From positions 2,048,001 to 2,112,000 of the forward strand of contig CBDCXV010000011.1 of NCBI GenBank assembly GCA_965223905.1: a DNA stretch of 64,000 bases. Direction: 5' to 3'. Below are positions 7,967 to 62,248 of this stretch, piece by piece. The stretch is from Candidatus Latescibacterota bacterium. GTDB taxonomy: Bacteria > Latescibacterota > UBA2968 > UBA8231. Position 1 is the stretch's first letter. Every line of letters begins with the position of its first letter. The translations under genes were made by a program, and so were the position numbers. The notes below the pieces were generated by a model, which did no database searches, was not told where the DNA came from, and was given only the letters and a program-made list of their open reading frames with translations.

Positions 7967-7984
7967 CGACGACTGATCATTTTT

Positions 7985-8118: not shown

Positions 8119-8216
8119 TACTGCGCAGCGATGGTAACTAATGGCAACTATCTGACACTCGACCCTGCTTGTGGCGTCAGGCCGGTGCTGATGACAAGGA
8201 GAGGAACGCCGATACA

Positions 8217-8750: not shown

Positions 8751-9058
8751 CCAAGGTGCCGCAAAAAAACCTGCCCGGCGCGGATCTCGTTGTATCGGGC
8801 ATCGAAGCGTTGCAACGCGGTGAGATGACGGTCGAAGCCTTGCTTGTCGCCGTTGGCGCGACACGTCTGCGCGCGGCTGGTTTGCAGGTGCCTCAAGCAG
8901 GGTTGCCGGACCACCCTGAACTCGCGCTCTACACGGCCCTTGGTGCCATGTATCCCGGAGACACCCATTCCCGGTACAACAGCCTCATTCGCCGACTCGT
9001 CAGCTTCGAGCGGGCACTTGAAAGCCAAGCTGTACGCGCCGAAGTGGAGCCGGTATAG
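8747..9058 (+). CDS. Hypothetical helical protein coupled to the DUF6036 gene
   Basis: GTGA overlap with the upstream gene; LPGADLV…ALLVAVGATRLR…HSRYNSLIRRLVSFERAL. Confidence 0.7.
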   Translation: MTKVPQKNLPGADLVVSGIEALQRGEMTVEALLVAVGATRLRAAGLQVPQAGLPDHPELALYTALGAMYPGDTHSRYNSLIRRLVSFERALESQAVRAEVEPV

Positions 9059-17134: not shown

Positions 17135-17420
17135 TGTACTGCCTTGCTTCATTGGTGGTTGCCTTGCGTGCGGAGATCAGCCGTATCCGGCCGCTTGAGG
17201 CAGTCTCTTCGCGATACGTATGACAAACGACCAGTAAACTACCTGTCCGATCCAGGCCAAGAGTGATCCACCGGGCCTCGTCCAAGCTGTGTTCCTCGTC
17301 GAACTCAGAGAGCGCTCGCGGATCCTGAAAAACGGTAGCAGCACGTTCGAACGTAATCCCATGGGCCCTGAGATTCTGTTCTGCCTTGCTGGAATCCCAT
17401 TCAAACTTATGCTGAAACAA
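17118..17420 (-). CDS. brnT: BrnT-family (DUF497) ribonuclease toxin
   Basis: FEWDSSKAEQNLRAHGITFERAATVFQDP…EEHS…EARWITLG…RIRLISARKAT..E. Confidence 0.9.
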   Translation of the reverse strand: MFQHKFEWDSSKAEQNLRAHGITFERAATVFQDPRALSEFDEEHSLDEARWITLGLDRTGSLLVVCHTYREETASSGRIRLISARKATTNEARQYNETGI

Positions 17421-38999: not shown

Positions 39000-39195
39000 T
39001 GCGGCAAATCCTGCTGAAGCGGGAACAGGCCATCCCCTGGCCGAATCAAGACGAACTACTGTAGCGATCGCCCCGGAACTCCTGCAAGGGGAAGGGCGGT
39101 TCGCTGCCGACGTCACCTGCATGGAATAGGAATAAATGCGTGATGACCGTACTATCCCGGCTAATGCAATCGTTTACATACAGGAGCCTGACCCA

Positions 39196-42100
39196 ATGAA
39201 AGCCCTATTTCTTCGCTCCGCCCTTTTCGCCCTGCTCGCCCTCGTTCTCACACCGCCGGCGTTCCTCCATGCTTCGCCTTCACTTGCCGACGGCTTGCAT
39301 TTCTGCGCCCCTCTCGATTACGAGCAGTGGCGCCGCGATCACCCCCGCCCCGCAGCCAAGCGGTTGGCCGATCTCGACACCGGCGAACCCCGCACCGTGC
39401 GCCTCTTCTACTTCCTGCCCAACGACCGCCCGTATCAGGCCGGTGTGGTCGATTCCATGAAAACGGCGATTCGCCAAGTCCAGACCTTTTTTGGCGAGCA
39501 GATGCAGGCGCACGGGTTCGGGTACAAAACCTTCCGCTTCGAGACCGACGACCAGGACGAACCGCTGGTTCACCGCGTGGATGGGCAACACCCCGACAGG
39601 CACTATGTCGAGGGCACGTTTGGGGCTATGTACGAAGAGATGAAGGAGGTATTCGATCTCTCGGCGAATATCAACGTTCTCCTCATCGACAACAGCACAA
39701 ACAAGATCAATAGAAAATACTCCGGAACAGGGGCTCGGTGGTCGAAACATAGTGGTCATGCGTCACTGACCGACCTGTTTATCTGGCAGATCATTGCCCA
39801 TGAGCTCGGACATGCCTTCGGCTTGCCGCACGATTTCCGCGATGATGCGTACATCATGTCGTATGGATTTGACCCGAGCCCTTCTCTATCTGTGTGCAGT
39901 GCCGAATTTCTGGCCGTGCATCCCTACTTCAATCCCGATGTTTCGATGACAGAGTCTGAGGGGCCGGCAATCGAGCGCCTTTCATCGCCTGCCTATCCGG
40001 CCGGCTCGGAGAGTGTTGCGATCCAGCTCAGAGTCAGCGATGCAGATGAACTACACCATGTGCGCCTAAACGTTCTGACCAGGGACACACACACCTTAGA
40101 TGCAGGATTCGAGGAACTGAAGTCATGCCGTGGATTGGCCGGCGAGGAAGAAGAAGTCGTTGAGTTCGAGTACGACGGCGTAATTCCCTCCGGAAAGGAT
40201 TATGGCTTTACGGACCTGTCCGACCCTCCCATACATCCAATCTTCATTGAGGCAGTCGATACTGACGGTAATATTGGATGGACCTTTTTCAATATCTGGG
40301 AGATTTCGCCACAACATATCGCAACCATCGAGGGGCATACGAGTGGGGTCCGCTCTGTGGTGTTTTCACCCGATGGGACGACCCTCGCTTCCGGTGCAGG
40401 GGATGGAATCAAGCTGTGGGACGGTTCCACGCGAACCACTACCGCCACCCTGTCCGGCGGCACCGCTTCGGTGTCCTTCTCACCCGATGGCAGGATCCTC
40501 GCCTTCGGGTCCGGGCTCGACATCGAACTGTGGGACGTGGCGACGGACCGGAGTATCGCCACTCTCTCCGGGCATACGCACCCGATCCGCTCCCTGGCCT
40601 TTTCGCCAGACGGCGCGATGCTCGCCTCGGGGGCCCCGGAGGCCATCCGACTGTGGAACCTGGAAACGCGGACAAGTACCGCGACCCTTCCCGCCGGCGC
40701 CGCCTCGGTGGCCTTCTCCCCCGACGGGGCGACTCTCGCCTCCAGCTCCGGAGATGGAGTCCAGCTCTGGGACGTGGCGACGCAGACCGATGTCGCGACT
40801 TACCGGCATAGCGGTGGGGTCACCGTCGCGTTTTCACCCGACGGCACAAAGCTCGTTTCGGGTTCCTTCGATCTCACGGTCATGCTGTGGGACGTGGCGA
40901 CGGGCGAGAACGTCGCCGTCCTCGGAGGACATGATCAGCCCGTCAGATCGGTGACCTTTTCAACCGACGGAACCCTGCTCGCTTCCGGGACGAACCTGGC
41001 GGTGAATTTGTGGGACCCGGTGACGAAGGGCAGGCTCGCCGTGCTGCAAGGTGAGAGCAGGGGGGCCAACACCCTGGCCTTTTCGCCAGACGGCACAACC
41101 CTGGCTGGGGGAACTGAGGACGGCAGGATCGACCTGTGGGACGTATCCAAGTGGCTGCAGCCCCGTCCTCGAATTCTGGTGAAGGTTTCCGGCGACGACC
41201 AGCAGGGCACGCCCGGTTCAGAGTTGGCGAACCCTTATGTCGTCGAGGTAAGGGATCAGTACGACAATCCCCTGCAGGGGGTTCAGGTCACGTTTTCGGT
41301 CACCGCAGGGGACGGCACCCTCGGCGGGAGGTTCACGCTTGAGAAGGCGACGACCGACGCCGACGGCCGGACTCAGGCCGTCCTGACTCTCGGGCCCGGC
41401 CCGGGAACAAACACCGTCGAGGCAACGGTTCCCGGGCTCGAGCTGGTGACGTTCGGTGCGGTGGGGGTCGGAACGACCTCTGCACCCGTCATGGAGGGTG
41501 ATCTGCATACCTGGCATCTGCCCGACGGCGCCGTTGCCCGCCTGGGAAAAGGACGCATAAGCCGAGGAGACAGGGCGATTGCCTTTTCTCCCGATGGTCA
41601 ACTCCTCGGCGTGGGGAGTGAAACCGGTACTTGGCTTTACGACGTGATGACTTCTCGTGCAGTCGCCCTGTTGCCCATTGGGTACGCGGTCATGTCGGTT
41701 GCGTTTTCGCCCGATGGGTCCAAGCTCGCCTCCGCCCGATTGCTGTGGGACGTGGCTACCGGCTCCCATACCCCTCTCGAATCCTTCTATTCAGTGGCGT
41801 TTTCACCCGACGGGACAATGCTCGCCTTGGGAACTTATGACAGCAAGATCAAGCTGTGGGACACTGCTGCGGGCACCACTACCGCCACCTATGAACATCG
41901 GGGCACTGTCTACTCAGTGGCGTTTTCGCCCGACGGCACAAAGCTCGTTACGGGCAACATCGAGGGCAGGGTCATGTTGTGGGACCTGGCGACTGGGACT
42001 CATGCAACCTTGGAGGGGCATAAGGACGTGGTCCAGTCCGTGGCCTTTTCGCCCGACGGGACGACTTTCGCTTCCGGATCCGACGACCACACGGTCAGAC

Positions 42101-44673
42101 TTTGGGATGCCGAGACGGGCACTCATATCGCCACGCTCGAGGGACATACGAGCTGGGTCTTCTCCGTGGCGTTTTCGCCCGATGGGAAAATCCTTGCTTC
42201 CGGGGCGTCGGATGGCACCGTCAGACTGTGGGACGTAGCGACGAGGACCAATTCCGCCACCTTCGAGGGACATACAGGTTGGGTCAGGTCAGTGGCATTT
42301 TCACCCGACGGAACTACTCTCGCTTCCATGGCGACGGATGGCAGGGTCAGGCTTTGGGAGGTGGCAACGGGCAGCGCCTCCACCGTAACGGATGAACATA
42401 GTGGCTGGGTCAGAGACGTGGCATTTTCACCCGATGGAACAAAACTCGCTTCGGGTTATGACTTCAAAAAGCTTGAGTTGTGGGACGTGGCAACGGGTGC
42501 CAATACCGCCACCCTCGAGGGCCACACACAGAGGATCAATGCTGTCGGGTTTTCGCCCGATGGAACCATCCTGGCCTCGGGATCTTCGGATGGCACCGTC
42601 AGACTGTGGGACGCGGCTACCGGTTCCGATATCGCTTCTCTTGAAACGCATGGATCCAGAAATTGGGTCAGCAATCTGGCCTTTTCCCCCGATGGAACGA
42701 TGATCGCTTCGGGACATGGTAATGGCACGGCCAAATTGTGGGACGTGGCCACGGGCGCCAATACCGCCACCCTCGAGGGACATACGTACCCGGTCTACCC
42801 TCTGGTATTCTCGCCTGATGGGAAGATCCTCGCTTCCGGTGACGCGATTTTCATTGATGGCGGGTCGTCGGATCCAAAGATCAGGCTGTGGGACGTGTCG
42901 ACCGGCACGAAGACCGCGACGTATGAATTGGATACGGATTGGATATACTCCATATCGTTTTCGCCAGAAATGACGCCCATTGCTCTAGGGGGATTCGGGG
43001 ATGGTACAGCCGAGTTGTGGGATCTGGCAACGGCCACCAGGATTGCCAAACGTTCCGAGACGCGTTTGATCTACTCCGCGGCATTTTCACCCGATGAAAG
43101 CATGCTCGTTTTCGGATCATCTTCCTGGAATCGTCCAACGGTCGAACTTTGGGATATCGGGGCTGAAACACAGATAGCGACCCTCTACGGTCATGGGGAT
43201 CAAGTCAGTACTGTGGCATTTTCGCCCGACGGAACGACCTTCGCTTCCGGGTCCCGGGACGGCACGATTCTGCTGTGGGATACGCAGCTTGTCCTGCCCC
43301 ACCCCCGCACCCTTACCAAGCTCTCCGGCGATAAACAGCAGGGATTGCCTGAATCAACGTTGCCCCAGCCGTTTGAAGTTTCCGTGTTGGACCAGAACGG
43401 GGACCCTCTTCCCGGGGCGACCGTCACGTTCACGGTCACCGCCGGCGGAGGTTCCCTGTCGGCAACCACTGCAACTACCGATGCCAACGGCCGCGCCGCC
43501 GCTACCCTGACCCTGGGAAGCGCTCCCGAAAGAAATACAGTTGCGGTAAGGGTAGCCGAGCTGAAACCGGTGATCTTCGGCGCCACTGCTCAGGCGGTTC
43601 CGACAAGCCTGACCAAGCTCTCCGGCGATAAACAGGAGGGACCGGCCGGAGCTGCCCTGTCCGCGCCGTTGGTTGTTGTAGTCCGGGATCAAATCAACAA
43701 TCCGTTCGAAGGTGCCCAGGTCACCTTCGCGGTTACCGCCGGCGAGGGAACTCTCTCCGCAACCACCGACACAACCGATGCCAACGGCCGCGCTGCCAGC
43801 GCCCTGACCCTGGGCAGCCTGCCGGGGGCCAACACCGTCTCGGTAAGGGTGGCCAAGCTGAAGCCGGTTGCCTTCATCGCCACCGGGCAGGCGATTCCCC
43901 AAAGCCTGACCAAGCTCTCCGGCGATGAGCAGCAGGCAGCGCCCGGGGCTTCGCTGCCCCAGCCGTTGGTGGTTTCGGTGGTCGATCAGAACGGGGACCC
44001 GTTTCCCGGGGCCGCCGTCACCTTGGCGGTAACCGCCGGCGACGGGACCCTCTCCGCAACCTCCGTCACCACGGATGAAAACGGCCGCGCCGCCAGCACC
44101 CTGACCCTGGGAAGCCTGCCGGGAACGAACACCATCGCAGTATCCGTGGCCGGGCTCGACCCCGTGACCTTCACCGCCACCGCGGAAGCCACCCCCGACT
44201 TCGACGGCGACGGCGAGACCGGCTTCTCCGACTTCTTCCTCATGGCCGACGCCTTCGGCGGCAATGACCCCCGCTTCGACCTCGACGGCAGCGGCAGCGT
44301 CGACTTCGGCGACTTCTTCCTCTTCGCCGACCACTTCGGACAGCCTGCCCGGGGCAAGCTGATGGCCCTGGCACGGGAGATGATCGGCCTGCCGGACGGA
44401 CCGCAGCTGCAGCAGAACGCCCCGAATCCTTTCAACAGCGAAACCCTCATCTCCTGGTTTCAGCTGAGACCGGGTTTCGCGCGAGTGGAGGTGTTTGCCC
44501 TGACCGGGCAGCGGGTGGCGGTGCTGCACCAGGGGCCGAAGAAGGCGGGGGTCCACCGCGTCCACTGGAACGGCCGCGACAACCGGGGCCGTCCCCTGGC
44601 CAGCGGGGTATACCTGTACCGATTGGTCACTACCGAGAGCGTCCAGACCCGCAAACTCACCCTGCTGCAATAA
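39196..44673 (+). CDS. Array slot 1: secreted metzincin peptidase-WD40-Ig-WD40-Ig(n)-EF-hand/dockerin-like-FlgD protein
   Basis: Signal peptide, HELGHAFGLPHD…IMSY, many SVAFSPDG…LWD repeats, KLSGDxQ Big_1-like repeats, DFDGDG…DLDGSG pair, QNAPNPFN…SGVYLYRL…TRKLTLLQ. Confidence 0.92.
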   Translation: MKALFLRSALFALLALVLTPPAFLHASPSLADGLHFCAPLDYEQWRRDHPRPAAKRLADLDTGEPRTVRLFYFLPNDRPYQAGVVDSMKTAIRQVQTFFGEQMQAHGFGYKTFRFETDDQDEPLVHRVDGQHPDRHYVEGTFGAMYEEMKEVFDLSANINVLLIDNSTNKINRKYSGTGARWSKHSGHASLTDLFIWQIIAHELGHAFGLPHDFRDDAYIMSYGFDPSPSLSVCSAEFLAVHPYFNPDVSMTESEGPAIERLSSPAYPAGSESVAIQLRVSDADELHHVRLNVLTRDTHTLDAGFEELKSCRGLAGEEEEVVEFEYDGVIPSGKDYGFTDLSDPPIHPIFIEAVDTDGNIGWTFFNIWEISPQHIATIEGHTSGVRSVVFSPDGTTLASGAGDGIKLWDGSTRTTTATLSGGTASVSFSPDGRILAFGSGLDIELWDVATDRSIATLSGHTHPIRSLAFSPDGAMLASGAPEAIRLWNLETRTSTATLPAGAASVAFSPDGATLASSSGDGVQLWDVATQTDVATYRHSGGVTVAFSPDGTKLVSGSFDLTVMLWDVATGENVAVLGGHDQPVRSVTFSTDGTLLASGTNLAVNLWDPVTKGRLAVLQGESRGANTLAFSPDGTTLAGGTEDGRIDLWDVSKWLQPRPRILVKVSGDDQQGTPGSELANPYVVEVRDQYDNPLQGVQVTFSVTAGDGTLGGRFTLEKATTDADGRTQAVLTLGPGPGTNTVEATVPGLELVTFGAVGVGTTSAPVMEGDLHTWHLPDGAVARLGKGRISRGDRAIAFSPDGQLLGVGSETGTWLYDVMTSRAVALLPIGYAVMSVAFSPDGSKLASARLLWDVATGSHTPLESFYSVAFSPDGTMLALGTYDSKIKLWDTAAGTTTATYEHRGTVYSVAFSPDGTKLVTGNIEGRVMLWDLATGTHATLEGHKDVVQSVAFSPDGTTFASGSDDHTVRLWDAETGTHIATLEGHTSWVFSVAFSPDGKILASGASDGTVRLWDVATRTNSATFEGHTGWVRSVAFSPDGTTLASMATDGRVRLWEVATGSASTVTDEHSGWVRDVAFSPDGTKLASGYDFKKLELWDVATGANTATLEGHTQRINAVGFSPDGTILASGSSDGTVRLWDAATGSDIASLETHGSRNWVSNLAFSPDGTMIASGHGNGTAKLWDVATGANTATLEGHTYPVYPLVFSPDGKILASGDAIFIDGGSSDPKIRLWDVSTGTKTATYELDTDWIYSISFSPEMTPIALGGFGDGTAELWDLATATRIAKRSETRLIYSAAFSPDESMLVFGSSSWNRPTVELWDIGAETQIATLYGHGDQVSTVAFSPDGTTFASGSRDGTILLWDTQLVLPHPRTLTKLSGDKQQGLPESTLPQPFEVSVLDQNGDPLPGATVTFTVTAGGGSLSATTATTDANGRAAATLTLGSAPERNTVAVRVAELKPVIFGATAQAVPTSLTKLSGDKQEGPAGAALSAPLVVVVRDQINNPFEGAQVTFAVTAGEGTLSATTDTTDANGRAASALTLGSLPGANTVSVRVAKLKPVAFIATGQAIPQSLTKLSGDEQQAAPGASLPQPLVVSVVDQNGDPFPGAAVTLAVTAGDGTLSATSVTTDENGRAASTLTLGSLPGTNTIAVSVAGLDPVTFTATAEATPDFDGDGETGFSDFFLMADAFGGNDPRFDLDGSGSVDFGDFFLFADHFGQPARGKLMALAREMIGLPDGPQLQQNAPNPFNSETLISWFQLRPGFARVEVFALTGQRVAVLHQGPKKAGVHRVHWNGRDNRGRPLASGVYLYRLVTTESVQTRKLTLLQ

Positions 44674-44751
44674 AGGCTTAGTGGTGGCAACAACCCTTTC
44701 ACGATCGACCCTCCCGCAAAAGCAAACGTTGGCATACAGGAGCCTGACCCA

Positions 44752-46061
44752 ATGAATGCCCCCGTTCTTCGTTCCGCCCTTTTCGCCCTGCTGGCTCTCG
44801 TTCTCTCGCCGCCGGCGTTCCTCCATGCTTCGCCTCCACCTGCCGACAGCCTGCAATACTGCCTGCCGCTCGATTTCCAGCCGGAGCAGCACGACACCAA
44901 TGCCGCGGCCAAGCGGCTGGCGGATCTCGACACCGGCGAACCCCGCACCGTGCGCCTCTTCTACTTCCTGCCCAACGACCGCCCGTATCGGCCGGACGCG
45001 GTTCAGAGGATAAAGGACGAAATCCGCAACATTCAGACCTTCTACGGCGAGCAGATGGAGGCCCACGGGTATGGATACAAGACCTTCCGCTTCGAGACCG
45101 ACGACGAGGGGGAGCCGCTGGTTCACCGGGTGGATGGGCAACATCCCGATAGTCACTATCTGGGCGGAACGTGGGCTCTGGTCGGCGAGGTTGAACAGGT
45201 GTTCGATCTGTCGAAGAGTATCGCTGTCTTCGTCATCGATAACAGCAACAACCGGATCAACAGGACTGCGGCCGGATCGGCGACCTGGAGCTCGAAACAG
45301 AGCGGAGTCCTTTTGGTGCCGGAGGAATTCAGCTGGCAAACCCTGGCCCATGAACTGGGACACACCTTCGGTATGGGACACGATTTCCGCGACGATACCT
45401 ACATCCTGTCATTCGGGCGGAGTGAGCGAAGGTTTCTGTCTGCTTGCAGCGCCGGATTTCTGGCCGTTCATCCCTACTTCAATCCCGATGTTGGAGTCGA
45501 GTGGGCAGAGGCGCCGGCCATCGAGCTCCTTTCGGCACCTGGGTATCCGGAAGGCTCGGAGAGCGTCTCGATCCGGCTCAGACTCAGCGACGCGCATGGC
45601 CTCCATCTAGTTCGCTTGAGGGTTCCCACGAGAGAGACGCACAACCCCGCCTATGATAGAGGAGGCTGGGAACTGAAGTTGTGCCGTGGAATGATGGGCG
45701 AGGAAGAAGCCGAGATTGAAATCGAATACGACGGCGTGGTCCCTTCGGGCAGTGACTGGGGCTTTACGGATCTTTCCGACCCGAAAGTGCATCCGATTTC
45801 CCTCATCGCGGTCGACAGGGACGGAAACAGGGCAGGCATCAGTTTCCATCTGTGGAAAGTGTCGCGGCAGCATCTGGCCACCTTCGAGCTTGCGGAGAAG
45901 GTCCATGCGCTGGCCTTTGCGCCCGGTGGCGCCACGCTGGCCTCCGGGTCGGGAGAGGGCACCGAGCTGTGGGACCTGGAGACGCGGAACAGGTGCCACG
46001 ACCTCCGTGCCCGGCGAGGCCCGAAAGCGCCCAGACCCGCAAACTCACCCTGCTCCGGTAG
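44752..46061 (+). pseudogene. Array slot 2: paralog with an intact peptidase domain, collapsed by a large internal deletion and frameshift
   Basis: HELGHTFGMGHD. After the first WD40 repeat (~45990-46020) the sequence jumps to the family's last codons ESAQTRKLTLLR* (46022-46061), out of frame. Confidence 0.82.
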
Positions 46062-46136
46062 GCACCCGGAAAACGGGCCCCCACAGCCCTTGGGTCGAGG
46101 CTCATGGATTACCGCGAAACCGCAGGAATCTCACCC

Positions 46137-46250
46137 ATGGAAGCCCCCCTCAAACTCACCCTGCTCCGGCAGGCAGGAAACACAGCTGTAACACCCCTCC
46201 AAGCCCGGCCCTTGGATACTTACCGAAACTTCAGGAGCCCGACTCCATGA
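46137..46250 (+). pseudogene. Array slot 3: empty cassette (family start fused directly to family end)
   Basis: CAGGAATCTCACCC-ATG GAA GCC CCC CTC AAA CTC ACC CTG CTC CGG CAG (MEAPLKLTLLR), with CAG where paralogs have TAG; reads on to a TGA overlapping the slot-4 ATG. Confidence 0.7.
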
Positions 46251-49200
46251 AAGCCCTTCTGATTTTTTCCTTGCTCGGAGTGGTTCTGCTCCCGCCGGAA
46301 TTCGTCCATGCTTCCCCTTCACCTGCGGACAGCCTGCATTTCAGCACGTTCACCTCAACGGCAGGAGATGGCACCTTCAGCGGGAGATTCAAGCTTGAGA
46401 GGGCGACGACCGGTGCCGACGGCCGGGCACAGGCCGTCCTCACCCTGGGACACGATCCGGGAACCAACACCTTCGAGGCAGCGGTTCCCGGGCTCGAGCT
46501 GCTGACGTTAAACGCGGTGGGGGTCGGAACGCCATCTACTCCTGAAATGGAGGGTGATTTCCAGAGATGGCATCTACCCCCGGGCGCCATTCTCCGTCTG
46601 GGAAAAGGACGGATTGGTACGGGGGACAGGGTTGTTGTCTTTTCGCCTGATGGCCTACTCCTCGCCGTCGGAAGCGAAATCGGCGTCTGGTTGTACGAAG
46701 TGGCCACTTCCCGAGAGCTTGCGCTGCTGCCTGCGGCCCCTGTCGCGGCCGTAGCGTTTGCCCCGGATGGGTCGATGCTGGCCTCCGCCGGGTCGTACGG
46801 AGATCGCACCGTCAAGTTGTGGGACCTGGCGACAGCGAACCTTTTGGAAACCATCGATCTCGAGGCCGATGCATTGGCGTTTTCACCTGACGGTACAACC
46901 CTGGCCTGCGGGTCGAAGTATGGAATCGACCTGTGGGACCTGGCGACGGGCACCAGGACGTCAACCATCTCCCATGAGCAAAATGCATGGGGGATTAATT
47001 CGTTGGCCTTTTCGCCGGATGGCACCACCCTGGCTTCCGGATCATGGTCGGATTATTTCGTCAGACTGTGGGACGTGACCACCGCCACCCATACCGCATC
47101 CCTGGACGGTCATGCGAATGAGGTTGAATCTGTGGCGTTTTCGCCCGACGGAACTACCCTTGCTTCCGGATCCCGGGATCGCACGGTCAGGCTGTGGGAC
47201 GTGGCCACAGGTGTCAATTCCGCCACCCTCGAGGGCCATATGGGCTTTGTCTACTCCGTGGCGTTTTCGCCCGATGGCACGACCGTCGCTTCCGGGTCGT
47301 GGGATGATGCAGTCAGGCTGTGGGACGTGGCCACCGGTGCAAACACCGCATCCTCCGAGGTCCATTCAGGCCGGGTCTATTCCGTGGCGTTTTCGCCCGA
47401 AGGAACTACCCTTGCTTTCGGGTCAACAAGTGATGGGACCGTCAGACTGTGGGACGTGGCCACAGGTGACGCCCATGCCTTTGCGAAGGGGCACAAGGGA
47501 TGGCTCAATACCGTGGCTTTCTCGCCCGATGGGACAACCATTGCATCCGGATACGACCATAAGACGATCGAGCTGTGGAACGTGGCGACGGGAGCCAGTA
47601 CCGCGGTCTTGGAGGGCCACAATTCAATAATCAATGACGTATCGTTTTCCCCTGACGGAACCATCCTCGCTTCCGGCTCGTCGGATAACACCGTCAAGCT
47701 GTGGGACGTGGCGACGGGAGCCAATACCGCCACCCTGGATACGCGCGAGCACCGTAGTTGGGTCGGCATCGTTGCCTTCTCTCCCGATGGAACGAGGATT
47801 GCTTCGGGACAGGGCAACGGCATCGCCAAGCTTTGGGACACGGCAACGGGAACAAATGCCGCCACTCTCAGGGGGCATACGAATCCGGTCAGTGTCCTGG
47901 CTTTTTCGCCTGACGGAACAGTCCTAGCCACCGGTGAAGGGCCGGACCTTGTTACCGAAACCTCCTCTGCTCCAATGGTCAAACTGTGGGATGTGGCGTC
48001 GGGGAACAATACCGCCACATTCGAATTGCCTACCGATTCCATAATCTCATTGTGGTTTACGCCCGATGGCAGGCCCATTGCTTCCGGTGGGCTGGGAGGG
48101 TGGCCTAGTGAAACGGTAGAGTTGTGGAACCTTGCGGATAACACCCTTATCGCCACCCTCTCCTTCGAAGAGTTGTGGGTTTACTCGATGATGGTTTTTT
48201 CGGGAACGGATGTCGACCAGATTGACCTGTTCGAGGTACGGGGGCTGGCCAGCGGAACCTACATCGCCACCCTGGGAGCCCACAGGGGTTTGATCACGGG
48301 TACGGTGTTCTCGCGGGACGGAAGAACCTTCGCTTCCAGTTCCGGAAATGGCACGATTCTGCTGTGGGATACGAAACTTTTTCTACCCCATCCCCGGACC
48401 TTGATCAAGTTCTCCGGCGACGACCAGCAAAGTCCCGCAGGGGCCGCTTTAACCAAGCCCTTGGTGGTTATGGTACACGACCAGTACGGGAACCCCCTTC
48501 CCGGGGCGATCGTCACTTTCGCCGTCACGGCCGGGGGAGGTTCCCTGTCGGCAACCACCGCCACCACCGATGCCGAGGGCCGCGCCGCCGTCACCCTGAC
48601 CTTGGGTAGCGATCCCGGGAGAAACACCGTCGCTGCAAAGGTCGCCGAACTGAAACCAGTGATCTTCGGGGCAACAGGGAAGGCGATTCCCCGAACCCTG
48701 GCCAAACTCTCAGGCGATGAGCAGGGAGGGCCGGCAGGAACGGCTCTGGCCGAGCCGTTTGTAGTCGAGGTCCGTAATCAGGACAACAATCCCCTCGAAG
48801 GTGCCCAGGTCACATTTGCCATCACCGCTGGAGGTGGGACGCTCTCGGCAACCACGGCCACCACCGATGCAAACGGCCGCGCCTCAAGCACCCTGACCTT
48901 GGGAACCGAGCCTGGAACGAACGTCGTCGCGGCAATCGCCGCGGAACTCGATCCGGTGACCTTCACCGCCAGCGGGGCGGCCATTCCAAAAAGCCTGACC
49001 AAGATCTCGGGGGATGAGCAGGAAGCCCCGGCTGGGGCCTCTTTGGTCGAGCCCTTCGTTGCCGAGGTCCGTGATCTGGACAACAATCCCCTCGCCGATG
49101 TCCAGGTCACCTTTGCGGTAACGGCCGGAAGCGGGACGCTCTCGGTAACCACGGCCACTACCGATGCCGATGGCCGCGCTTCCACCACCCTCACCTTGGG

Positions 49201-49759
49201 GCTGACGGGAGCCAACACCGTCACCGTATCCGTGGCCGGGCTGGAGTCCATCACCTTCACTGGCACCGCCAAGGCAACCCCCGACTTCGACGGCGACGGA
49301 GAGACCGGCTTCTCCGACTTCTTCCTCTTCGCCGACGCCTTCGGCGGCAGCGACCCCCGCTTCGACCTCGACGGCAGCGGCAGCGTCGACTTCGGCGATT
49401 TCTTCCTGCTCGCCGACCACTTCGGGGATCCGGCCCGCGGGAAGCTGCTGGCCCTTGCCCGGGAGATGATCGGCCTGCCGTACGGCCCGCAGCTGCAGCA
49501 GAACGTCCCCAATCCCTTCAACAGCGAGACCGTCATCTCCTGGTTCCTGCTGCGGCCGGGACCGGTGCGCGTGGAGGTGTTCGCCTTGACCGGGCAGCGG
49601 GTGGCGGTCTTGCACGAGGGGACCGGGAAGGCGGGTGTTCACCGCGTCCACTGGGACGGCCGCGACGATCGGGGCCGCCACTTGGCCAGCGGAGTGTACC
49701 TGTATCGACTGGTCACTGACGAGAGGGTCCACACGCGCAAGCTCACCCTGCTCCGGTAG
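46247..49759 (+). CDS. Array slot 4: secreted WD40-Ig-EF-hand-FlgD paralog lacking the peptidase and first propeller
   Basis: RBS AGGAG; MKALLIFSLL…ADSLHF joins directly to TAGDGTFSGRF, which lies mid-Ig-domain in slot 1. Confidence 0.88.
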   Translation: MKALLIFSLLGVVLLPPEFVHASPSPADSLHFSTFTSTAGDGTFSGRFKLERATTGADGRAQAVLTLGHDPGTNTFEAAVPGLELLTLNAVGVGTPSTPEMEGDFQRWHLPPGAILRLGKGRIGTGDRVVVFSPDGLLLAVGSEIGVWLYEVATSRELALLPAAPVAAVAFAPDGSMLASAGSYGDRTVKLWDLATANLLETIDLEADALAFSPDGTTLACGSKYGIDLWDLATGTRTSTISHEQNAWGINSLAFSPDGTTLASGSWSDYFVRLWDVTTATHTASLDGHANEVESVAFSPDGTTLASGSRDRTVRLWDVATGVNSATLEGHMGFVYSVAFSPDGTTVASGSWDDAVRLWDVATGANTASSEVHSGRVYSVAFSPEGTTLAFGSTSDGTVRLWDVATGDAHAFAKGHKGWLNTVAFSPDGTTIASGYDHKTIELWNVATGASTAVLEGHNSIINDVSFSPDGTILASGSSDNTVKLWDVATGANTATLDTREHRSWVGIVAFSPDGTRIASGQGNGIAKLWDTATGTNAATLRGHTNPVSVLAFSPDGTVLATGEGPDLVTETSSAPMVKLWDVASGNNTATFELPTDSIISLWFTPDGRPIASGGLGGWPSETVELWNLADNTLIATLSFEELWVYSMMVFSGTDVDQIDLFEVRGLASGTYIATLGAHRGLITGTVFSRDGRTFASSSGNGTILLWDTKLFLPHPRTLIKFSGDDQQSPAGAALTKPLVVMVHDQYGNPLPGAIVTFAVTAGGGSLSATTATTDAEGRAAVTLTLGSDPGRNTVAAKVAELKPVIFGATGKAIPRTLAKLSGDEQGGPAGTALAEPFVVEVRNQDNNPLEGAQVTFAITAGGGTLSATTATTDANGRASSTLTLGTEPGTNVVAAIAAELDPVTFTASGAAIPKSLTKISGDEQEAPAGASLVEPFVAEVRDLDNNPLADVQVTFAVTAGSGTLSVTTATTDADGRASTTLTLGLTGANTVTVSVAGLESITFTGTAKATPDFDGDGETGFSDFFLFADAFGGSDPRFDLDGSGSVDFGDFFLLADHFGDPARGKLLALAREMIGLPYGPQLQQNVPNPFNSETVISWFLLRPGPVRVEVFALTGQRVAVLHEGTGKAGVHRVHWDGRDDRGRHLASGVYLYRLVTDERVHTRKLTLLR

Positions 49760-49799
49760 GCCGCCTCGCCATGGATTTCCTTCCCAAGTGCTTTGTTAA

Positions 49800-49970
49800 A
49801 GAGTCGGCATTGAGTTTTGGACCTTTACCAGCTTCGCATGTTCAAGATTTCAATGTCGCCATATGAGGTACTCCTGCATGCGCCGGCCGACTTCCCGATG
49901 GTCCTTGGGTTGCTGTTCTTGATGACGAAGTAGATGCGTTGCCTCCGGTAACCGCGCCGAATGGCCTTAA
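49800..49970 (-). mobile_element. Possible degenerate transposase C-terminal remnant (IS630-like)
   Basis: Frame-split peptide RIYFVIKNSNP / KDHREVGRRMQEYLIWRH resembles IS630 transposase ends and replaces the usual ~75-bp spacer. Confidence 0.3.
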
Positions 49971-49985
49971 CCGAGACTATACTTC

Positions 49986-52900
49986 ATGACGATCCCAAAT
50001 CTTCGATCCGTTCTTTTCGTTTCTTTAATTCTCTCTTTCCCGCCGACTGCTGGAAAAACAGCCAGTAATGATGTGGGAGTTGGAACCCCTGGTTTGGAAA
50101 CCATGGGAGGTGACTTCCAAACGTGGTTATTGCCTGACGGGGCAATCATTCGTCTGGGAAAGGGAGACATTAGTTCAGACGATAAGGCGGTTTACTTTTT
50201 TCCTGATGGTCAACGACTCGCTGTGGAAAGTACTGCCGGGATTTGGCTGTATGATGTGCAGACGTTTCGTCCACTCGCACTGATGCCAACCTATCTGAGA
50301 GGATTGGCTGGTAGGGACAAAATTTCGTATACGCCGGATATGACCACTCTCGCTTTTGGATTTGGGTATTTTATCCAGTTATGGGATGTTGCCACCCGAA
50401 CCAATACTTCCACTTTCTATTTTCAGGACAGAATCACTTCTGTTGCCCTTTCATCGGATGGGACAATCCTTGCGTCCGGGGTTTCCTCTGGAGCGATCAA
50501 GTTATGGGACCTAGAAACGGGAGCCGATACTGCCATCCTGGACCATGGGAGCAGGATAACGTGTTTGGCTTTTTCCCCGGATGGGACAACTCTCGCATCT
50601 GGGGGGGCAGAGAAAAATCTGGTCAAGCTGTGGAATGCTTCAACCGGAGCCAATACCTCCACCTTAGAGGGGCATGGAGGCACGATCACATCTCTGACAT
50701 TTTCCCCCGATGGGACAGCCCTTGCCTCCGGATCACATGATCAAACTGTAAGAGTGTGGGATGTTGGGACCGGGACTAATACCGCCATTCTGGAAGGGCA
50801 TGGGTACATAGTCACCTCGGTGGCCTTTTCCCCCGATGGGGGAAACCTGATTTCCGGGGAAGATGCGGTTACGGACACAGGACTGGAAGATGCTGCTGTC
50901 AGGTTATGGAACGTCGTGACGGAAACCCAGATTGCCACATTTTCTCCGCATGGATATCACATCTCTTCGGTGGCATATGCCCCCGATGGGACAACCATTG
51001 CTTCTGGATCCTCTTCGGATGGTACGGTCAAGCTATGGGACATAGCCACTGGGAACTCTGTTTCCCTTCCCGGGCATACTAATGAGATCACAACGTTGGC
51101 ATTTTCACCGGATGGGACGACCATCGCTTCTGGATCCTGGTCGGATGGTACGGTCAAGTTATGGGACATAGCCACTGGGAACTCTGTTTCCCTTCCCGGG
51201 CACACGGATGACATCCTCACGGTGGCTTTTTCCTCCGACGGGGCAACTCTCGCCGCCGGAACGGGTCGCGCCATTAAACTGTGGAATACAGAGATCAGGG
51301 AACCGATCGGAACCCTGAATGGGCATATGTCTCGGGTTCGTTCCGTGTCGTTCTCCCCCGATGGCGTCACCTTGGCCTCCGGGTCAAACGATAATACGGT
51401 AAAGCTGTGGGATGTAGCATCCGGAAAAAATATCGCTACTCTTGAAGGACATACGGATGTGGTCCATCAGGTATTGTTTTCACCCGACGGCGCCACCCTT
51501 GCTTCCGCAGGGAGAGATGGCACCGTCATACTTTGGCACGTAAGGACCAGGAACCGGATCGCAGCCCTGGAAGGGCCTATGTATGGAGTTAATTCGGTGG
51601 CCTTTTCTCCCGACCTTCCCATTCTGGCGGCCGCGTCAAATGATGGAACGATCAAACTGTGGAATATGGAAACCTTGGTAATCGTCGCTACTTTTGACGG
51701 ACATTTAAATGCCGCCAATTCAGTGTCCTTTTCTCCTGACGGCACCACTCTTGCCTCTGCAGGAGGGAAGGCCATACTGTGGGATGTAGAAAGTGGCGAA
51801 CAGATCGTTGGCCTGGATGGGCATGTGTTTGAGATCAATTCGGTTTCCTTTTCGCCCGACGGCTTCATCCTGGCTACCGGGTCACAGGACGGCATGATCC
51901 TGCTTTGGGATTTGCAGCCGCCGCAACCTCAGACGGTGGCAAAGCTCTTCGGAGATGATCAGCAAGGGCTTCCCGGCTCCACTTTGCCCGAGCCATTAGT
52001 GGTTTCGGTGCTGGATGAAAACGGAGCAGCGTTTGATGGGGCAGTCGTAACCTTTTCCGTCGCCGCCGGTGGGGGGACCCTCTCGGCAACCACGGCCATC
52101 ACCGATGCCAGCGGCCGCGCAGCTGTCACCCTGACCCTGGGCAGCGATCCCGGAAGAAATACGGTCGCAGTAAAAGTCGCCGACCTGAAGCCGGTGATCT
52201 TCAGTGCCACTGCCCAGGCGATTCCGACAAGCATCGCCAAGGTCTCAGGCGACGAGCAGGAAGGGCCGGCCGGAGCCGCGTTGGTTGAGCCTTTCGTTGT
52301 TGTGGTCCGGGATCAAATCGACAATCCCTTCGAAGGGACCCAGGTCACCTTCACGGTCACCGCCGGCGACGGAACCCTCTCCTCAACCACCGCCACCACC
52401 GATGACAAGGGCCGCGCAGCCAGCACCCTGACCCTGGGGCTGCCGGGAGCCCACTCCGTCACCGTATCCGTGGCCGGCCTCGACCCTGTGACCTTCACCG
52501 CCACCGCCGAAGCCACCCCCGACTTCGACGGCGACGGCGAAACTGGCTTCTCCGACTTCTTCCTGTTCGCCGACGCCTTCGGCGGCAGTGACCCCCGCTT
52601 CGACCTCGACGGCAGCGGCAGCGTCGACTTCGGTGACTTCTTCCTCTTCGCCGACCACTTCGGGGATCCGGCCCTGGGGAAGCTGCTTGCCCTGGCCCGG
52701 GAGAGGATCGGCCTGCCGGACGGCCCGCAGCTGCGGCAGAACGCCCCCAACCCCTTCAACAGCGAGACGGTCATCTCCTGGTTCCTGCTGCGGCCGGGAC
52801 CGGCGCGCGTGGAGGTGTATGCGCTGACCGGGCAGCGGGTGGCGGTGCTGCACCAGGGTCTGAAGAATGCGGGAGTCCACCGCGTGCACTGGGACGGGCA

Positions 52901-52997
52901 TGACGATCGGGGCCGCCCCCTGGCCAGCGGGGTGTACCTGTATCGGCTGGTGACTGACGAGCGCGTTCAGACCCGGAAACTCACCCTGCTGCGGTAG
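49986..52997 (+). CDS. Array slot 5: WD40-Ig-EF-hand-FlgD paralog with a different N-terminus
   Basis: Unrelated leader joined at VGVGTP…WLLPDGAIIRLGKG; same C-terminal module as the other slots. Confidence 0.9.
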   Translation: MTIPNLRSVLFVSLILSFPPTAGKTASNDVGVGTPGLETMGGDFQTWLLPDGAIIRLGKGDISSDDKAVYFFPDGQRLAVESTAGIWLYDVQTFRPLALMPTYLRGLAGRDKISYTPDMTTLAFGFGYFIQLWDVATRTNTSTFYFQDRITSVALSSDGTILASGVSSGAIKLWDLETGADTAILDHGSRITCLAFSPDGTTLASGGAEKNLVKLWNASTGANTSTLEGHGGTITSLTFSPDGTALASGSHDQTVRVWDVGTGTNTAILEGHGYIVTSVAFSPDGGNLISGEDAVTDTGLEDAAVRLWNVVTETQIATFSPHGYHISSVAYAPDGTTIASGSSSDGTVKLWDIATGNSVSLPGHTNEITTLAFSPDGTTIASGSWSDGTVKLWDIATGNSVSLPGHTDDILTVAFSSDGATLAAGTGRAIKLWNTEIREPIGTLNGHMSRVRSVSFSPDGVTLASGSNDNTVKLWDVASGKNIATLEGHTDVVHQVLFSPDGATLASAGRDGTVILWHVRTRNRIAALEGPMYGVNSVAFSPDLPILAAASNDGTIKLWNMETLVIVATFDGHLNAANSVSFSPDGTTLASAGGKAILWDVESGEQIVGLDGHVFEINSVSFSPDGFILATGSQDGMILLWDLQPPQPQTVAKLFGDDQQGLPGSTLPEPLVVSVLDENGAAFDGAVVTFSVAAGGGTLSATTAITDASGRAAVTLTLGSDPGRNTVAVKVADLKPVIFSATAQAIPTSIAKVSGDEQEGPAGAALVEPFVVVVRDQIDNPFEGTQVTFTVTAGDGTLSSTTATTDDKGRAASTLTLGLPGAHSVTVSVAGLDPVTFTATAEATPDFDGDGETGFSDFFLFADAFGGSDPRFDLDGSGSVDFGDFFLFADHFGDPALGKLLALARERIGLPDGPQLRQNAPNPFNSETVISWFLLRPGPARVEVYALTGQRVAVLHQGLKNAGVHRVHWDGHDDRGRPLASGVYLYRLVTDERVQTRKLTLLR

Positions 52998-53072
52998 GCG
53001 CCCCGACAACCCGGTGCCACCGCCCCTGAGCCCGCAGCCCATGGATAGGGAAAACCGAAGGAGCCCCACCCC

Positions 53073-56000
53073 ATGAAAGCCCCCGTCATTCGTTCCGCCT
53101 TTTTCGCTTTGCTCGGTTTCCTTCCAGCACCCCCGGCGCTCGTTCATGCATCACCTCCACTTGCCGACAGCCTGCATTTCTGCAAGCTGCTCGATTTCGA
53201 TCAGGAGCGGCTCGATACCAACGCTGCGGCCAAGCGGCTGGCGGATCTCGACACTGGCGAACCCCTGACCGTGCGAATGATCTACTTCCTGCCCAACGAC
53301 CGGCCGTACCAAGCCAGTGTAGTCGATTCCATGAAGACGACGATCCGTCAGATCCAGACCTTTTATTCCGAGCAGATGCAGGCGCATGGCTACGGCGAGA
53401 AAACCTTCCGTTTCGAGACCGACGACCAGGAAGAGCCGCTGGTTCACCAGGTCGATGGGCGACACCCGGATAGTCATTATTCCGACGAGGGGAAAAGTGT
53501 TATTGCCGAGATAGAAGAAGCATTTGATGTCCTTAAGAATGTTTACTTCATCGTAATTGATAATGATCACCATACAATCAACCCTGGCAGCAGGGTGCTG
53601 GGTATCGCACACTCGCTCGGGAAAAATGGTGGAATGGCATTGGTTACTGATGAATTCAGCTTTGCAATCGCAACACATGAGCTTGCACATGCCTTCGGGG
53701 TAGTTTGGCACGATTTCCGGGATGGAACTTATATCATGTCATATGGTCCGGGATGGAACGAGTTATCCCCGTGCCATGCGGAATTTCTGACTGTGCATCC
53801 CTACTTCAATCCAGGTGTGGAAGCCCAGGCCGCCCCACCTCCAACCATCGAACTCTTGTCGCCGACTACGTACCCGGGCGGAACAGAGAGCGTTTCCATA
53901 GAGATGAAGGTCAGCGATTCTGATGGACTTCATCAGGTGTACCTGTTCACCGGATCGAATGAATTGAAGGTGTGTCGTGGATTTGCCGGTGAAACAGAGA
54001 CCGTCGTCGAATTCGATTATGATGGCGTCATACCATCCAATCCACGCAGAAATTTTTCCACCCTTGCTTTACATTCGCTTCGCGTCGCCGCAGTCGATAC
54101 TGAAGGGAATGTGGGCTGGACGTCTTTTGAACTTCGGGAGCTTTCCAGGCAGCACATCGCCACCCTCTCCGGTGTGAGTGCGGTCCGATCGGTTTCGTTT
54201 TCGCCCGACGGGACTACCCTCGCTTGCGGAACAGAGGATGGCGTAGAGATCTGGGACGTTGCAACACGCCAAACCCTCACCCTTCTCGAGCAATCAGGCA
54301 AGGTAATGTCCGTTGCGTTTTCATCCGATGGAACCAAGCTCGCCAGCGGATCAACGTACGGCACGATTGAGCTTTGGGAGAATTCGACCTGGAGCAATAT
54401 CGCGACTCTGGAATCGCAAAACCCCATCTATTCGGTTGCCTTTTCACCCTCCGGCACAACCGTCGCTTCGGGAACCAGTGCAGGAATCGAGCTGTGGGAC
54501 GTAGAGTCGCGGGCGAATATCGCCACCCTTGAAGGACATACAGGCCGGGTCTCTTCTGTGTCGTTTTCACTGGACGGGGCCATGCTGGCTTCCGGGTCGG
54601 AGGATGGTACGGTCAAGCTCTGGGATCTTCCCGCCGGAACCCATACCGCCACCCCCGAAGGACATGCTCAGCCGGTCTTTGTCGTGGGATTTTCGCCTGA
54701 GGGAACCTTGCTGGCTTCCGGGTCGGAGGATGGTACGGTCAAGCTCTGGGATATCGAGAAACGAGCGATCATCTCCACCCTATACAACAGGACAGGAGTT
54801 ACTTCGATTTCATTCTCACCTGACGGGGCAACCCTCGCTTCCGGTTGCCAGGATAACACGATCAAGCTGTGGGACGTTTTGACAGAGGAATATGTCACCA
54901 CCCTCGCCGGCCATACCGGGTGGATTTCTTCGGTGGCGTTTTCACCCAACGGGGTAATGCTTGCTTCCGGGTCGTTGGACAACACGATAAAACTGTGGGA
55001 TGCCTCCGAACGGATGCAGCCTCGTCCCCGCACGATTGTGAAGATCTCGGGCGACAATCAGGAGGGTACCGCCGGTTTGGATTTGGCGGATCCTTATGTG
55101 GTTGAAGTCAGGGATCAGTACGGCAATCCGTTGCAAGGGGTTCGGGTTTCTTTTTCAATCAAGTCAGGTGGAGGAAAGCTCGGTGGGAGGTCCGATGAAG
55201 AAGTCGCAGTTTCCGATGAAGACGGCAGGACGCGGAGCATCCTCACCCTTGGACCCAATCCGGGGAACAATACCGTGGAGGTATCTGTCCGCGGGCTTGA
55301 GCCTTTGATCTTTCACTCGGTGGGAATCGGAACTCCTGGTTCTCTTACAGTGGGTGAAAATCAGACATGGCATTTACCCGAAGGAGCGATCGCACGATTG
55401 GGAAAAGGACGCCTCAGTCAAGTGGACAAGGCGATTGCCTTCTCACCCGGAGGCCAGCGCCTCGCGGTGGTAAGCAGCCTCGGCATCTGGCTATATGATG
55501 TGACGACCCTTCGTCCTATGGCACTTCTTCCCGCTGATCTGGCCTCGAGAGGGTCCCTGGCGTTTTCCCCGGACGGAACAGCACTCGCTTTCAGCGACCG
55601 TCGTACAATCAGACTGTGGGACCTTGCGACAGCTGAAGTCATCGCAACCATGGGGGGGAGATCGGCTTCTCCTCCGGCTTTTTCACCGGACGGAAATACC
55701 CTCGCTTCCGGGTTATGGGATGGTACGATCGAGTTGTGGGACGTGGCGACAGGAGAACCCGTGGCCACCCTGGAGGGGCATAGGGATGGAGTCCTCTCCG
55801 TGGCCTTCTCCCCTGATGGTACGGCGCTCGCTTCCGGGTCATGGGATCGTCAGATCCGGCTGTGGGACCTGGGAACAGGGGAAACTACCTCAACCCTGAA
55901 GGGGCATGGGGACCATGTCGAGTCCGTGGCGTTCTCCCCTGACGGGACCCTGCTCACTTCCGGGTCATGGGACGGAACTGCCCAGGTATGGGATGTGGGG

Positions 56001-58802: not shown

Positions 58803-58919
58803 GGGGTATCCCAGGCTGAATCATCCGAGTATACTTCCGGAGCGAAGAGGCCGGGACGGAAGTAGGCACTCTTGCCAGGTTCAGGGAAAGTTTTCCTGCC
58901 TGCCCATTTGGAGGTTCCC

Positions 58920-59469
58920 ATGACGACCGCCGCCTTGATGACCGCAGACGAGTTGTTGTTGATGAAGGACGATGGTTTTCGCTACGAACTCGTCCGGGGA
59001 GAGTTGAGAAAAATGAGTCCGGCCGGCCATCGACACGGCAGAATCGCGCTCAATCTGACAGGGCCGCTTTTCCAGCACGTAAGGAAGTGGGATCTGGGAG
59101 CTGTATATGCGGCTGAAACCGGCTTCAAACTGGCCGCGGACCCCGATGTGGTGCGAGCCCCGGACGCGGCTTTCGTCCGGCGAGAGCGGGTCGAGGCGGT
59201 GGGCCAGACCCTAAGGATTCTGGCCGGGTGCACCCGACCTGGCCGCCGAGGTCCTCTCACCCGGCGAAACCTCCGCGGAGGTGGAGGACAAGATCGCCGA
59301 CTGGCTCGACGCCGGCACCCGCCTGGTCGTGGTGGTCGATCCGGACGATCAAACGGCAACCCTGTACCGCTCGCGCAAGGACATCCGCGTCCTGACCATC
59401 GACGGCGTAATCGATGGCGGGGAGGTTGTGCCCGACTGGACTCTTCCGGTGCGGGATATCTTCCTCTGA
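58920..59469 (+). CDS. Uma2 (DUF820) endonuclease, frameshift near 59210
   Basis: MTADELL…RYELVRGEL…AAETGF…VRAPDAAFV, then in a shifted frame GFWPGAPDLAAEVLSP…WLDAGTRLVVVVDP. Confidence 0.85.
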
Positions 59470-59527
59470 AGCTGAACAGTCCTGTGTTGCGGTGGGACCG
59501 GGCGCAATTCATCCAGGGGAAAACAGT

Positions 59528-60239: not shown

Positions 60240-60350
60240 CTGCTCGGGGGCGAGGATGGAGTTTCCTCCGTGGCGTTTTCCCCGGATGGCACCCTCCCCG
60301 CTTCCGGGTCGGATGATGGCACCGTCCGCATATGGGACGTGGCAAAGGCA
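60240..60350 (+). pseudogene. Orphan single WD40 repeat remnant
   Basis: LGGEDGVSSVAFSPDGTLPASGSDDGTVRIWDVA with no surrounding gene. Confidence 0.7.
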
Positions 60351-60407: not shown

Positions 60408-60716
60408 ATGACGGAGATACTGGAAAGCAGACTCGACGCTATAGCACAAGCCTGCAGACGGCATGGCGCAACCCGACTGGACGTTTTCGGATCGGCTTTG
60501 CGGGATGACTTCAAACCAGGTCAGAGCGACGTGGACCTACTGGTAGAACTTGGTCCGATGGAGCCGTATGCCCGGGTCGATGCCTACTTCGGACTGCTTG
60601 AAGATCTCAGGGACATTTTGGGAGGACATGTCGACCTGGTCGTTTCAGGAGCCCTGAAGAACCATTATATCGCCCGCGACATTGAGCGAACGAAGCAGTT
60701 GCTGTATGCCGCGTGA
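60408..60716 (+). CDS. Minimal nucleotidyltransferase (MNT) antitoxin
   Basis: RLDVFGSALRDDF…SDVDLLVE…VDLV; RBS GAGGTGG. Confidence 0.88.
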   Translation: MTEILESRLDAIAQACRRHGATRLDVFGSALRDDFKPGQSDVDLLVELGPMEPYARVDAYFGLLEDLRDILGGHVDLVVSGALKNHYIARDIERTKQLLYAA

Positions 60717-61107
60717 CGAGAGGGCGTACCTGTCTGACGTGATCGAAGCGTGCGACGCGATCTCCGACGCAGTCCGGGACCTTGATCTCCAAGGCTACGA
60801 AGGCAACCGGCTCGTCCGGTCCTCGGTAGAGCGTGAGTTCATAATCATCGGGGAAGCTCTAGGGTCCCTTGGTCGCATGTCAGAGGAGATCTTCGGCAGC
60901 ATCACCCGAGCTCGCCGAATCGTGGACTTCCGAAATCAGCTGACTCATCAGTATCCAACTGTTGACGACGCTATTGTCTGGGCAATCATCGAGCGGGATG
61001 TTCCGGTGCTCCACCGTGAATGTGTGGGTCACCTTCATCGTCTAAGTACTCCCGATTTGGATACTGGGAACGACAGCCCCGATGGCAACCGTGAAGCAGA
61101 TTGTTGA
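60706..61107 (+). CDS. HEPN (DUF86) ribonuclease toxin
   Basis: YLSDVIEAC…SVEREFIIIGEAL…FRNQLTHQY (RxxxxH)…IVWAII. Confidence 0.9.
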   Translation: MPRDERAYLSDVIEACDAISDAVRDLDLQGYEGNRLVRSSVEREFIIIGEALGSLGRMSEEIFGSITRARRIVDFRNQLTHQYPTVDDAIVWAIIERDVPVLHRECVGHLHRLSTPDLDTGNDSPDGNREADC

Positions 61108-61878: not shown

Positions 61879-62248
61879 TTCCACGTTGCTCCGATGTAGG
61901 GTTGACGGCTTCCTCGCGCGCAACTCCGTCTGAACGAGTGCCTGCGCCCACTATTCCGCGTGATTCGGCCGCCGCTGCATCTTGAGGGGAAAAATCGCGG
62001 TTTCAATCCAAACCCCTTCATCTGTGCGATTTTTCCCCTCAATCCCGGCTCCCCGCGTTGCCTTCGCTCGCCGTACACCCCCGGTACGACTCGCTCGGGC
62101 GCTTTGCGAGCCGGGAGCTTCGGCACCTCCTTCGTACGCTTAACACGCACGGGCACCAGGTCGCTGGTTTCCTCGGACCTGCGCGCCCAAGCACCAGACC
62201 AGGTCGTTCCGGCAAAATGCCCGTTGCGGCAAAAGCCCGGATCGAATT

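Follow-up and report, generated by a model that had tools for sequence, protein, structure and literature searches.

An in-frame start-end fusion in a Latescibacterota surface-protein array looks like an ordinary deletion remnant

We analysed a window of 64,000 nucleotides (C11:2048001-2112000) from a 7.9-Mb Latescibacterota genome, G000. A tandem array of surface-protein paralogs in this window comprises six slots, and in the third the opening codons of a family gene are fused in frame to the last six codons of the family. Slot 3 is most probably the remnant that short-homology deletion left of a paralog in a decaying and shuffling array, with no selected role for its ORF. In kind, the remnant has the look of ordinary gene decay and not of a programmed cassette.

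The array spans 39196-58802 on the plus strand. Its paralogs share a domain order of signal peptide, Zn metallopeptidase-like domain (Metallopep and Reprolysin matches), WD40 propellers, Big_1 and FlgD_ig-like tail; the family assignments for peptidase and tail come from the copies in slots 2 and 6. Paralog tails within the array are 87-90% identical, and the tail domain has 144 tblastn matches across the genome. By domain and paralog comparison, slot 1 (39196-44673, 1825 aa) is a full-length paralog composed of signal peptide, Zn-metallopeptidase-like domain, WD40 propeller, Big_1, further WD40 propellers, three Big_1 domains, a DFDGDG repeat and the FlgD_ig-like tail. Slot 6 (53073-58802, 1909 aa) is also full length, and in slot 5 (49986-52997, 1003 aa) the signal peptide is joined directly to the linker after Big_1, without a peptidase domain.

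Spacer 1-2 (44674-44751) measures 78 nt and carries an AGGAG ribosome-binding site, and spacer 5-6 (52998-53072, 75 nt) served as the intact reference for the two spacers that flank slot 3. Of these, spacer 2-3 (46062-46136, 75 nt) matches the reference at 50/75 positions (z = 7.4) and spacer 3-4 (46173-46246), which has an intact AGGAG for slot 4, at 47/74 (z = 5.4); the alignment scores were reached by none of 500 shuffles. The two match each other at 45/74 positions. Both are thus homologous to an intact spacer, but the preliminary description of this region had called them intact themselves, which is not quite the case: the Shine-Dalgarno sequence of slot 3 is weakened, and spacer 3-4 has 74 nt where the others have 75-78 nt.

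Slot 3 begins with an ATG at 46137-46139. Five start-like codons, M-E-A-P-L (46137-46151), are followed in frame by K-L-T-L-L-R (46152-46169), the last six codons of the family, and the former stop codon (46170-46172) now reads CAG, which completes a 3' remnant at 46152-46172. The resulting ORF of 37 aa (46137-46250) ends in a TGA (46248-46250) that overlaps the slot-4 ATG (46247-46249); an alternative in-frame ATG at 46104 would give a 48-aa version. The first 15 nt of the slot are identical to the slot-6 start at 13/15 positions (24 such sites in 15.85 million genome positions) and to the slot-4 start at 11/15. The last 22 nt are identical to the slot-2 end at 21/22 positions (3 such sites in 15.85 million genome positions) and equally to the slot-4 end, the closest pairing of ends. 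The fusion of start-like codons to the last codons of the family, the likeness of this start to paralog starts and the change of the stop to CAG with the ensuing overlap had all been proposed beforehand, and each is borne out by the sequence.

The ribosome-binding site of slot 3 is weakened to -4.3 kcal/mol, compared with -6.6 to -8.5 kcal/mol for slots 1, 2, 4 and 6, and a residual AGGA site is present. Codon 2 of the mini-ORF is Glu in the window; of four paralog starts that were compared, three have Lys at this codon. We found no Pfam match for the 37-aa ORF and no exact copy of it in the protein collection. Neither a sigma-70 promoter nor a terminator was found in 45900-46400, and an Rfam search over 38800-61300 returned a single chance match below threshold. 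None of the 24 runs listed with the sequence is an RNA dataset, from which nothing follows about expression. The gene ends at 46160-46173, 46049-46062 and 49747-49760 can fold into a 5-bp hairpin with a UNCG-type loop, in which the C that replaces T in the slot-3 stop gives a G-C pair instead of G-U (-8.9 versus -6.9 kcal/mol). The hairpin is probably incidental, given that the last codon it needs occurs in just 12 of 42 domains.

The joint at 46151 is crossed without gaps by one contig in each of four runs out of four, from four studies. Contig X1 (45276-48147), possibly the source of the window sequence, has no letter that differs from the window; the contigs of the remaining three runs differ at none (X3, 46011-46251), six (X4, 45817-47204) and two (X8, 45847-46255) letters. 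The CAG and the 74-nt spacer are unchanged in X1 and X3. No loose end or alternative joint lies at the slot-3 joint among the 24 loose ends and 15 joints listed for the contigs, from totals larger by 881 and 195 rows, and minority alleles may therefore exist. Two ENA proteins with strain differences, P0007 and P0008, read through the same joints in the slot-2 frame, and the fusion is thus present in several strains; as protein sequences, they are compatible with either TAG or CAG at the old slot-3 stop. Both have E for K at the point where, read back from the protein, codon 2 of the mini-ORF would be Gly. Since contigs from all four runs bridge the joint, the structure of slot 3 is not an assembly artefact, and neither is it a product of chance.

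Beyond what had been described before, the genes on both sides of slot 3 are deletion derivatives as well. Alignment to full paralogs reveals that slots 2, 3 and 4 are each internally deleted, with the three joints lying within 330 nt. In slot 2 (44752-46061), the signal peptide and the peptidase domain are kept, and the first WD40 repeat is kept in part. The frame shifts by 1 nt near 45985, the final 13 codons and their TAG are joined on out of frame near 46020, and the ORF continues in another frame to 46191 (479 aa). A full-length slot-2 allele, P0012 (1853 aa), is 92% identical to it over 412 aa. P0012 carries on past the slot-2 joint and its final 12 residues are the same as those of slot 2, and the slot-2 deletion is therefore proven. 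The peptidase part of slot 2 has a dN/dS of 0.20 versus G002, and most of its divergence therefore arose under selection. The cut gene (44752-46191) still encodes a signal peptide and the complete HExxH peptidase domain, but neither propellers nor a sorting tail. P0007 and P0008 show that this cut form exists in other strains, and a free peptidase may still be made from it.

At an in-frame joint near 46345, slot 4 (46247-49759, 1170 aa) passes from its signal peptide straight into the middle of the first Big_1 domain, and the peptidase domain and first propeller (~2 kb) are gone. The last 60% of this Big_1 domain directly follows the signal peptide (46247-46606). The joint is common to P0002 and P0005, and such proteins are 90-99% identical by segment. 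Residues 34-110 vary by 10% between strains and the rest by 1-3%, which suggests that the Big_1 half-domain is unconstrained. Among 25 candidates of 643-2048 aa we found the deleted form of slot 4 and no full-length allele. We also considered that slots 2 and 4 might be one gene with an inserted piece and rejected this: the middle of P0012 is just 49-59% like slot 4, and slots 2 and 4 are therefore separate genes.

The flanks of slot 3 are colinear with intact paralog starts, ends and spacers while the interior is missing, as it is in slot 2 when compared with P0012. We infer that slot 3 was formerly a full member of the array, probably of ~5.5 kb. One or more illegitimate, RecA-independent deletions, using few shared bases at most, would have joined codon 5 to the sixth-last codon; with paralog ends as stand-ins for the parent sequence, the joints share ~1-4 nt. 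Later drift would have weakened the ribosome-binding site, altered the second codon and removed the stop. The event would be one of three adjacent deletions, in slots 2, 3 and 4, in an array that is also shuffled by homologous recombination between paralogs, and the 37-aa ORF and its ATGA overlap would be by-products, presumably without function.

Several observations fit this history. The ends are alike at 21/22 positions and the spacers at 45/74 (Fisher p = 0.0014); this is the pattern of separate paralogs, and it suggests, with the parent missing, that the coding ends were constrained until recently. Possible signs of decay in slot 3 are the weaker ribosome-binding site, the lost stop and a codon 2 that differs between strains, in a stretch whose 36 nt are too short for a rate test. 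Spontaneous deletions of 2-67 kb in Salmonella show homology of 4 bp or less in 11 of 30 cases (PMC3386194), a range into which the ~1-4 nt estimated from paralogs would fall, and small microhomology deletions in bacterial pseudogenes are reported to lean to multiples of three (PMC6054270). Slot 3 is like the deletions and remnants described in these two papers in its multi-kb loss, apparently few shared bases, in-frame joint and later point changes; it differs from them in being extreme, with less than 1% of the gene left, both termini kept between homologous spacers and the parent allele not in hand.

Other observations sit less easily with deletion and drift. Both breakpoints lie within ~25 nt of the gene ends, and by our arithmetic one random deletion in 5.5 kb would place them so near about 2 times in 100,000; we assume that they need repeated trimming between genes in use or one multi-jump replication event. 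The joint is in frame and its read-through extends to the slot-4 start. The slot-3 stretch of X3 differs from the window at 0/241 nt, which is too short for significance, while the other listed X3 contigs differ by at most 7 letters each. Finally, a strain with a full gene at slot 3, which the preliminary description had suggested looking for, was not found: none of the 145 proteins collected can be assigned to slot 3.

From species to species, the array locus is unstable: no array is present there in G001, and G002 has one gene interrupted by 15 kb of other genes. In G001 (L027), both array flanks (window 39092-58876) are joined directly, at a short G run shared by both sides. The paralogs are mosaic, as shown by sliding identities versus a G004 gene and by two further proteins: P0047 is 98% identical to slot 2 in residues 1-55 and 62% in the peptidase domain, and P0012 gives 69% and 95%, respectively. 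In the lpl cluster of Staphylococcus aureus, gene end, spacer and next gene start form a unit of evolution (Tsuru and Kobayashi; PMC2568036). That cluster likewise consists of tandem paralogs for surface or secreted proteins that vary between strains and include mosaic genes, and the mosaic paralogs described here fit its recombination model. The slot-3 joint itself is not homologous: crossovers in lpl fall in a conserved central region and yield whole chimeric genes, whereas slot 3 joins a non-homologous start and end and leaves no gene.

Further features of the surroundings may be recorded here. The first of the Uma2 genes after the array (58920-59470) is apparently frameshifted near 59210, its Pfam match covering profile positions 2-82 of 172. 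A short repeat of ~85-190 nt at 61930-62125 has dozens of copies in G001, G002 and G004. A low-GC stretch (6000-17150), possibly a defence island, harbours genes for an ISL3 transposase, a sacsin-domain protein and an SNF2 helicase, along with two ORFs that have no Pfam match. G000 has a second, larger array of the same family (C11:1317337-1362316), whose gene content differs in G001 and G002. WD40 and other eukaryotic-like proteins have been reported in sponge-associated Latescibacterota (PMC12993501), members of the same phylum in which WD40 genes are likewise expanded; the main text of that paper makes no mention of 'pseudogene', 'FlgD' or 'T9SS'. We found no paper on the slot array in openly accessible journals.

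The remnant might have been recruited as an upstream ORF (uORF) that starts at 46137 or 46104, runs through the CAG, stops at the ATGA and allows re-initiation on slot 4. We regard this as possible but unsupported and, overall, unlikely. The in-frame joint, the lost stop, the overlap (46247-46250) and the residual AGGA site speak for it, as does the identity of the CAG and the 74-nt spacer in X1 and X3. Overlaps of the ATGA type do couple translation of uORFs in Sinorhizobium (PMC13285730), and the uORFs described there likewise combine a short ORF, a Shine-Dalgarno-like site and a stop over the next start; the slot-3 ORF differs in its apparent origin from a deleted paralog, its weak ribosome-binding site, its drift and its putative translation.

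Nevertheless, the overlap is weak evidence for coupling. Spacer 3-4 stays open in 42% of 5000 shuffles, which with a one-in-three chance of the right frame makes an overlap expected in ~14% of cases once the stop is lost. A 4-nt overlap requires merely an A after the start codon (PMC3887535). The starts of slots 1, 2, 4, 5 and 6 all read ATG-A, with slot 3 as the exception, and read-through in the right frame must therefore stop on the start. Moreover, slot 4 owns an intact ribosome-binding site, that of slot 3 is weaker and predicted to be paired (fold z = -1.5, not significant), and codon 2 of the mini-ORF varies between strains. The earlier idea that the remnant keeps translational coupling has to be given up: intact junctions have spacers of 75-78 nt and their own ribosome-binding sites, so any coupling would be new.

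A second alternative, which we consider quite improbable, is that gene ends are preferred breakpoints of a recombinase-free deletion and replacement process that empties or swaps whole genes and spares end-spacer-start units. The arrays would then be integron-like cargo sites, and slot 3 would be the cleanest product of this process, possibly reused as a coupling uORF. We still allow for this reading because both slot-3 breakpoints lie within ~25 nt of the ends, three joints fall within 330 nt, orphan 3' ends of the family exist, a HicAB pair sits at such an end in G012, and one codon near the gene end is biased.

Nine orphan 3' ends were found in four of the six genomes examined (G000 four, G001 three, G002 one, G012 one), whereas G004 and G019 yielded none. 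The left edges of these ends are located 19, ~22, 41, 60, 61, 63, 63 and 80 nt before the end; one end gave no alignment, and two are probably orthologous. The cluster of edges at 61-63 nt coincides with the point at which wobble-rich codons give way to conserved bases, and the alignment itself may have produced it. Ends of 19-80 nt with the rest of the gene gone are located at C1:1650411-1650472 and C2:554-616 in G000, and at L045:2285-2347, L046:1530-1589, L039:6000-6078, L049 near 3446-3530 and L051:10776-10796. Two further candidates (G001:C3:3945343 and G019:C1:3066180) were dropped as intact divergent domains. The suggestion that the C2 end is an alternative haplotype of C1:1702290 was unsupported, its flank matching a second C1 copy 2 kb away.

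In G012, a family gene end and a second, 20-nt copy of it enclose a pair that reads in translation as HicB-HicA-like (L051:10186-10796). In G001, an orphan gene end with a spacer resembling that after slot 6 immediately precedes a nucleotidyltransferase-HEPN pair elsewhere in the genome (L045:2285-2500); in the window, the post-slot-6 spacer is separated from the nucleotidyltransferase-HEPN pair (58780-58850, 60408-61047) by two Uma2 genes and a lone WD40 repeat (60265-60345). As for the codon bias, the fifth-last codon is CTC in 35 of 42 domains, and elsewhere CTC makes up just 24 of 370 Leu codons. When the gene end was tested for additional nucleotide conservation, 43 domains picked on residues 1-82 gave p = 0.09, and we make no claim of such conservation; an earlier test (p = 0.025, 25 domains) was set aside, its ends having been picked by DNA motif and thus biased.

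It is very improbable that slot 3 never held a gene and that an end-spacer-start unit was duplicated in tandem or copied in, which would give the same layout. Two junction units are indeed adjacent, 111 nt apart, and their ends form with slot 4 the closest pair (21/22); moreover, units of this kind are known to evolve as such in paralog clusters (PMC2568036). However, the similarity between spacers 2-3 and 3-4 is 61%, and both are nearer to spacer 5-6 (50/75, 47/74) than to one another. The unused end copy has a single change while the spacers have diverged (p = 0.0014), which argues against a recent spacer duplication. The slot-3 start shares more positions with slot 6 (13/15) than with slot 4 (11/15), and a closer donor spacer was not found in the genome.

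Recombinase-driven, integron-like excision of gene cassettes is largely refuted and, as the origin of the slot, highly improbable. In integrons, the tyrosine recombinase IntI lies next to the cassette array, and attC sites are imperfect palindromes that have RYYYAAC and GTTRRRY cores and form a long hairpin. The array resembles integron cassettes in its co-oriented genes, related spacers, content that varies between genomes, and toxin-antitoxin and Uma2 genes beside or inside the arrays; the nine orphan ends, three of which start 61-63 nt before the end, could also be read in this way. It differs from them in lacking an attC structure, a nearby integrase and a common crossover point, and its genes are paralogs with their own ribosome-binding sites.

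Folding of the junction DNA gave no significant hairpin (z = -1.53 to +1.05 against shuffles; four junctions, both strands), and the GTT core is absent from spacers 2-3 and 3-4. A recombinase search that covered PF00589 and PF00239 returned 19 tyrosine recombinase (PF00589) matches in G000, of which those on C11 lie at 196-384 kb (nearest, C11:384376); none is within 1.7 Mb of the array, at 2.09 Mb. The one resolvase-family match (PF00239) is on C10 and none is on the array contig; an ISL3 transposase lies 34 kb upstream of the array. The joints fall at unrelated positions: two are ~22 and 41 nt away from the gene end and the third is within Big_1, and other orphan ends start at 19, 60-63 and 80 nt. 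Exact patterns of the start-end fusion occur in one of 76 family genomes, one of 132 class genomes, many of them incomplete, and in none of the JGI metagenomes; peptidase-domain relatives were likewise absent among 273 candidate stretches from JGI metagenomes. Moreover, excision in slot 3 destroys the gene and neither moves nor restores it. The term 'empty cassette' used for the slot before is therefore unsupported. What stands of the near-complete excision of a multi-kb gene is a paralog remnant without its interior, with homologous spacers and ends and slot 2 as precedent; excision as a programmed process is unsupported.

A collapse of repeats during assembly would be conceivable in an array whose paralog tails are 87-90% identical, but the gap-free contigs from four runs and the shared joints in strain-differing ENA proteins refute it, and its probability is negligible.

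We return to slot 3 as a deletion remnant. Its importance would be greater if breakage were targeted to gene ends or if slot 4 were under the control of the remnant, for either of which the evidence is thin. As an ordinary scar, it is a warning that such remnants escape annotation and resemble cassettes. It also gives a clear picture of how large WD40 surface-protein arrays shrink and change their domain content in uncultured Latescibacterota: slot 4 has lost its peptidase in frame and is still open, slot 2 has been shortened, and slot 3 has been emptied.
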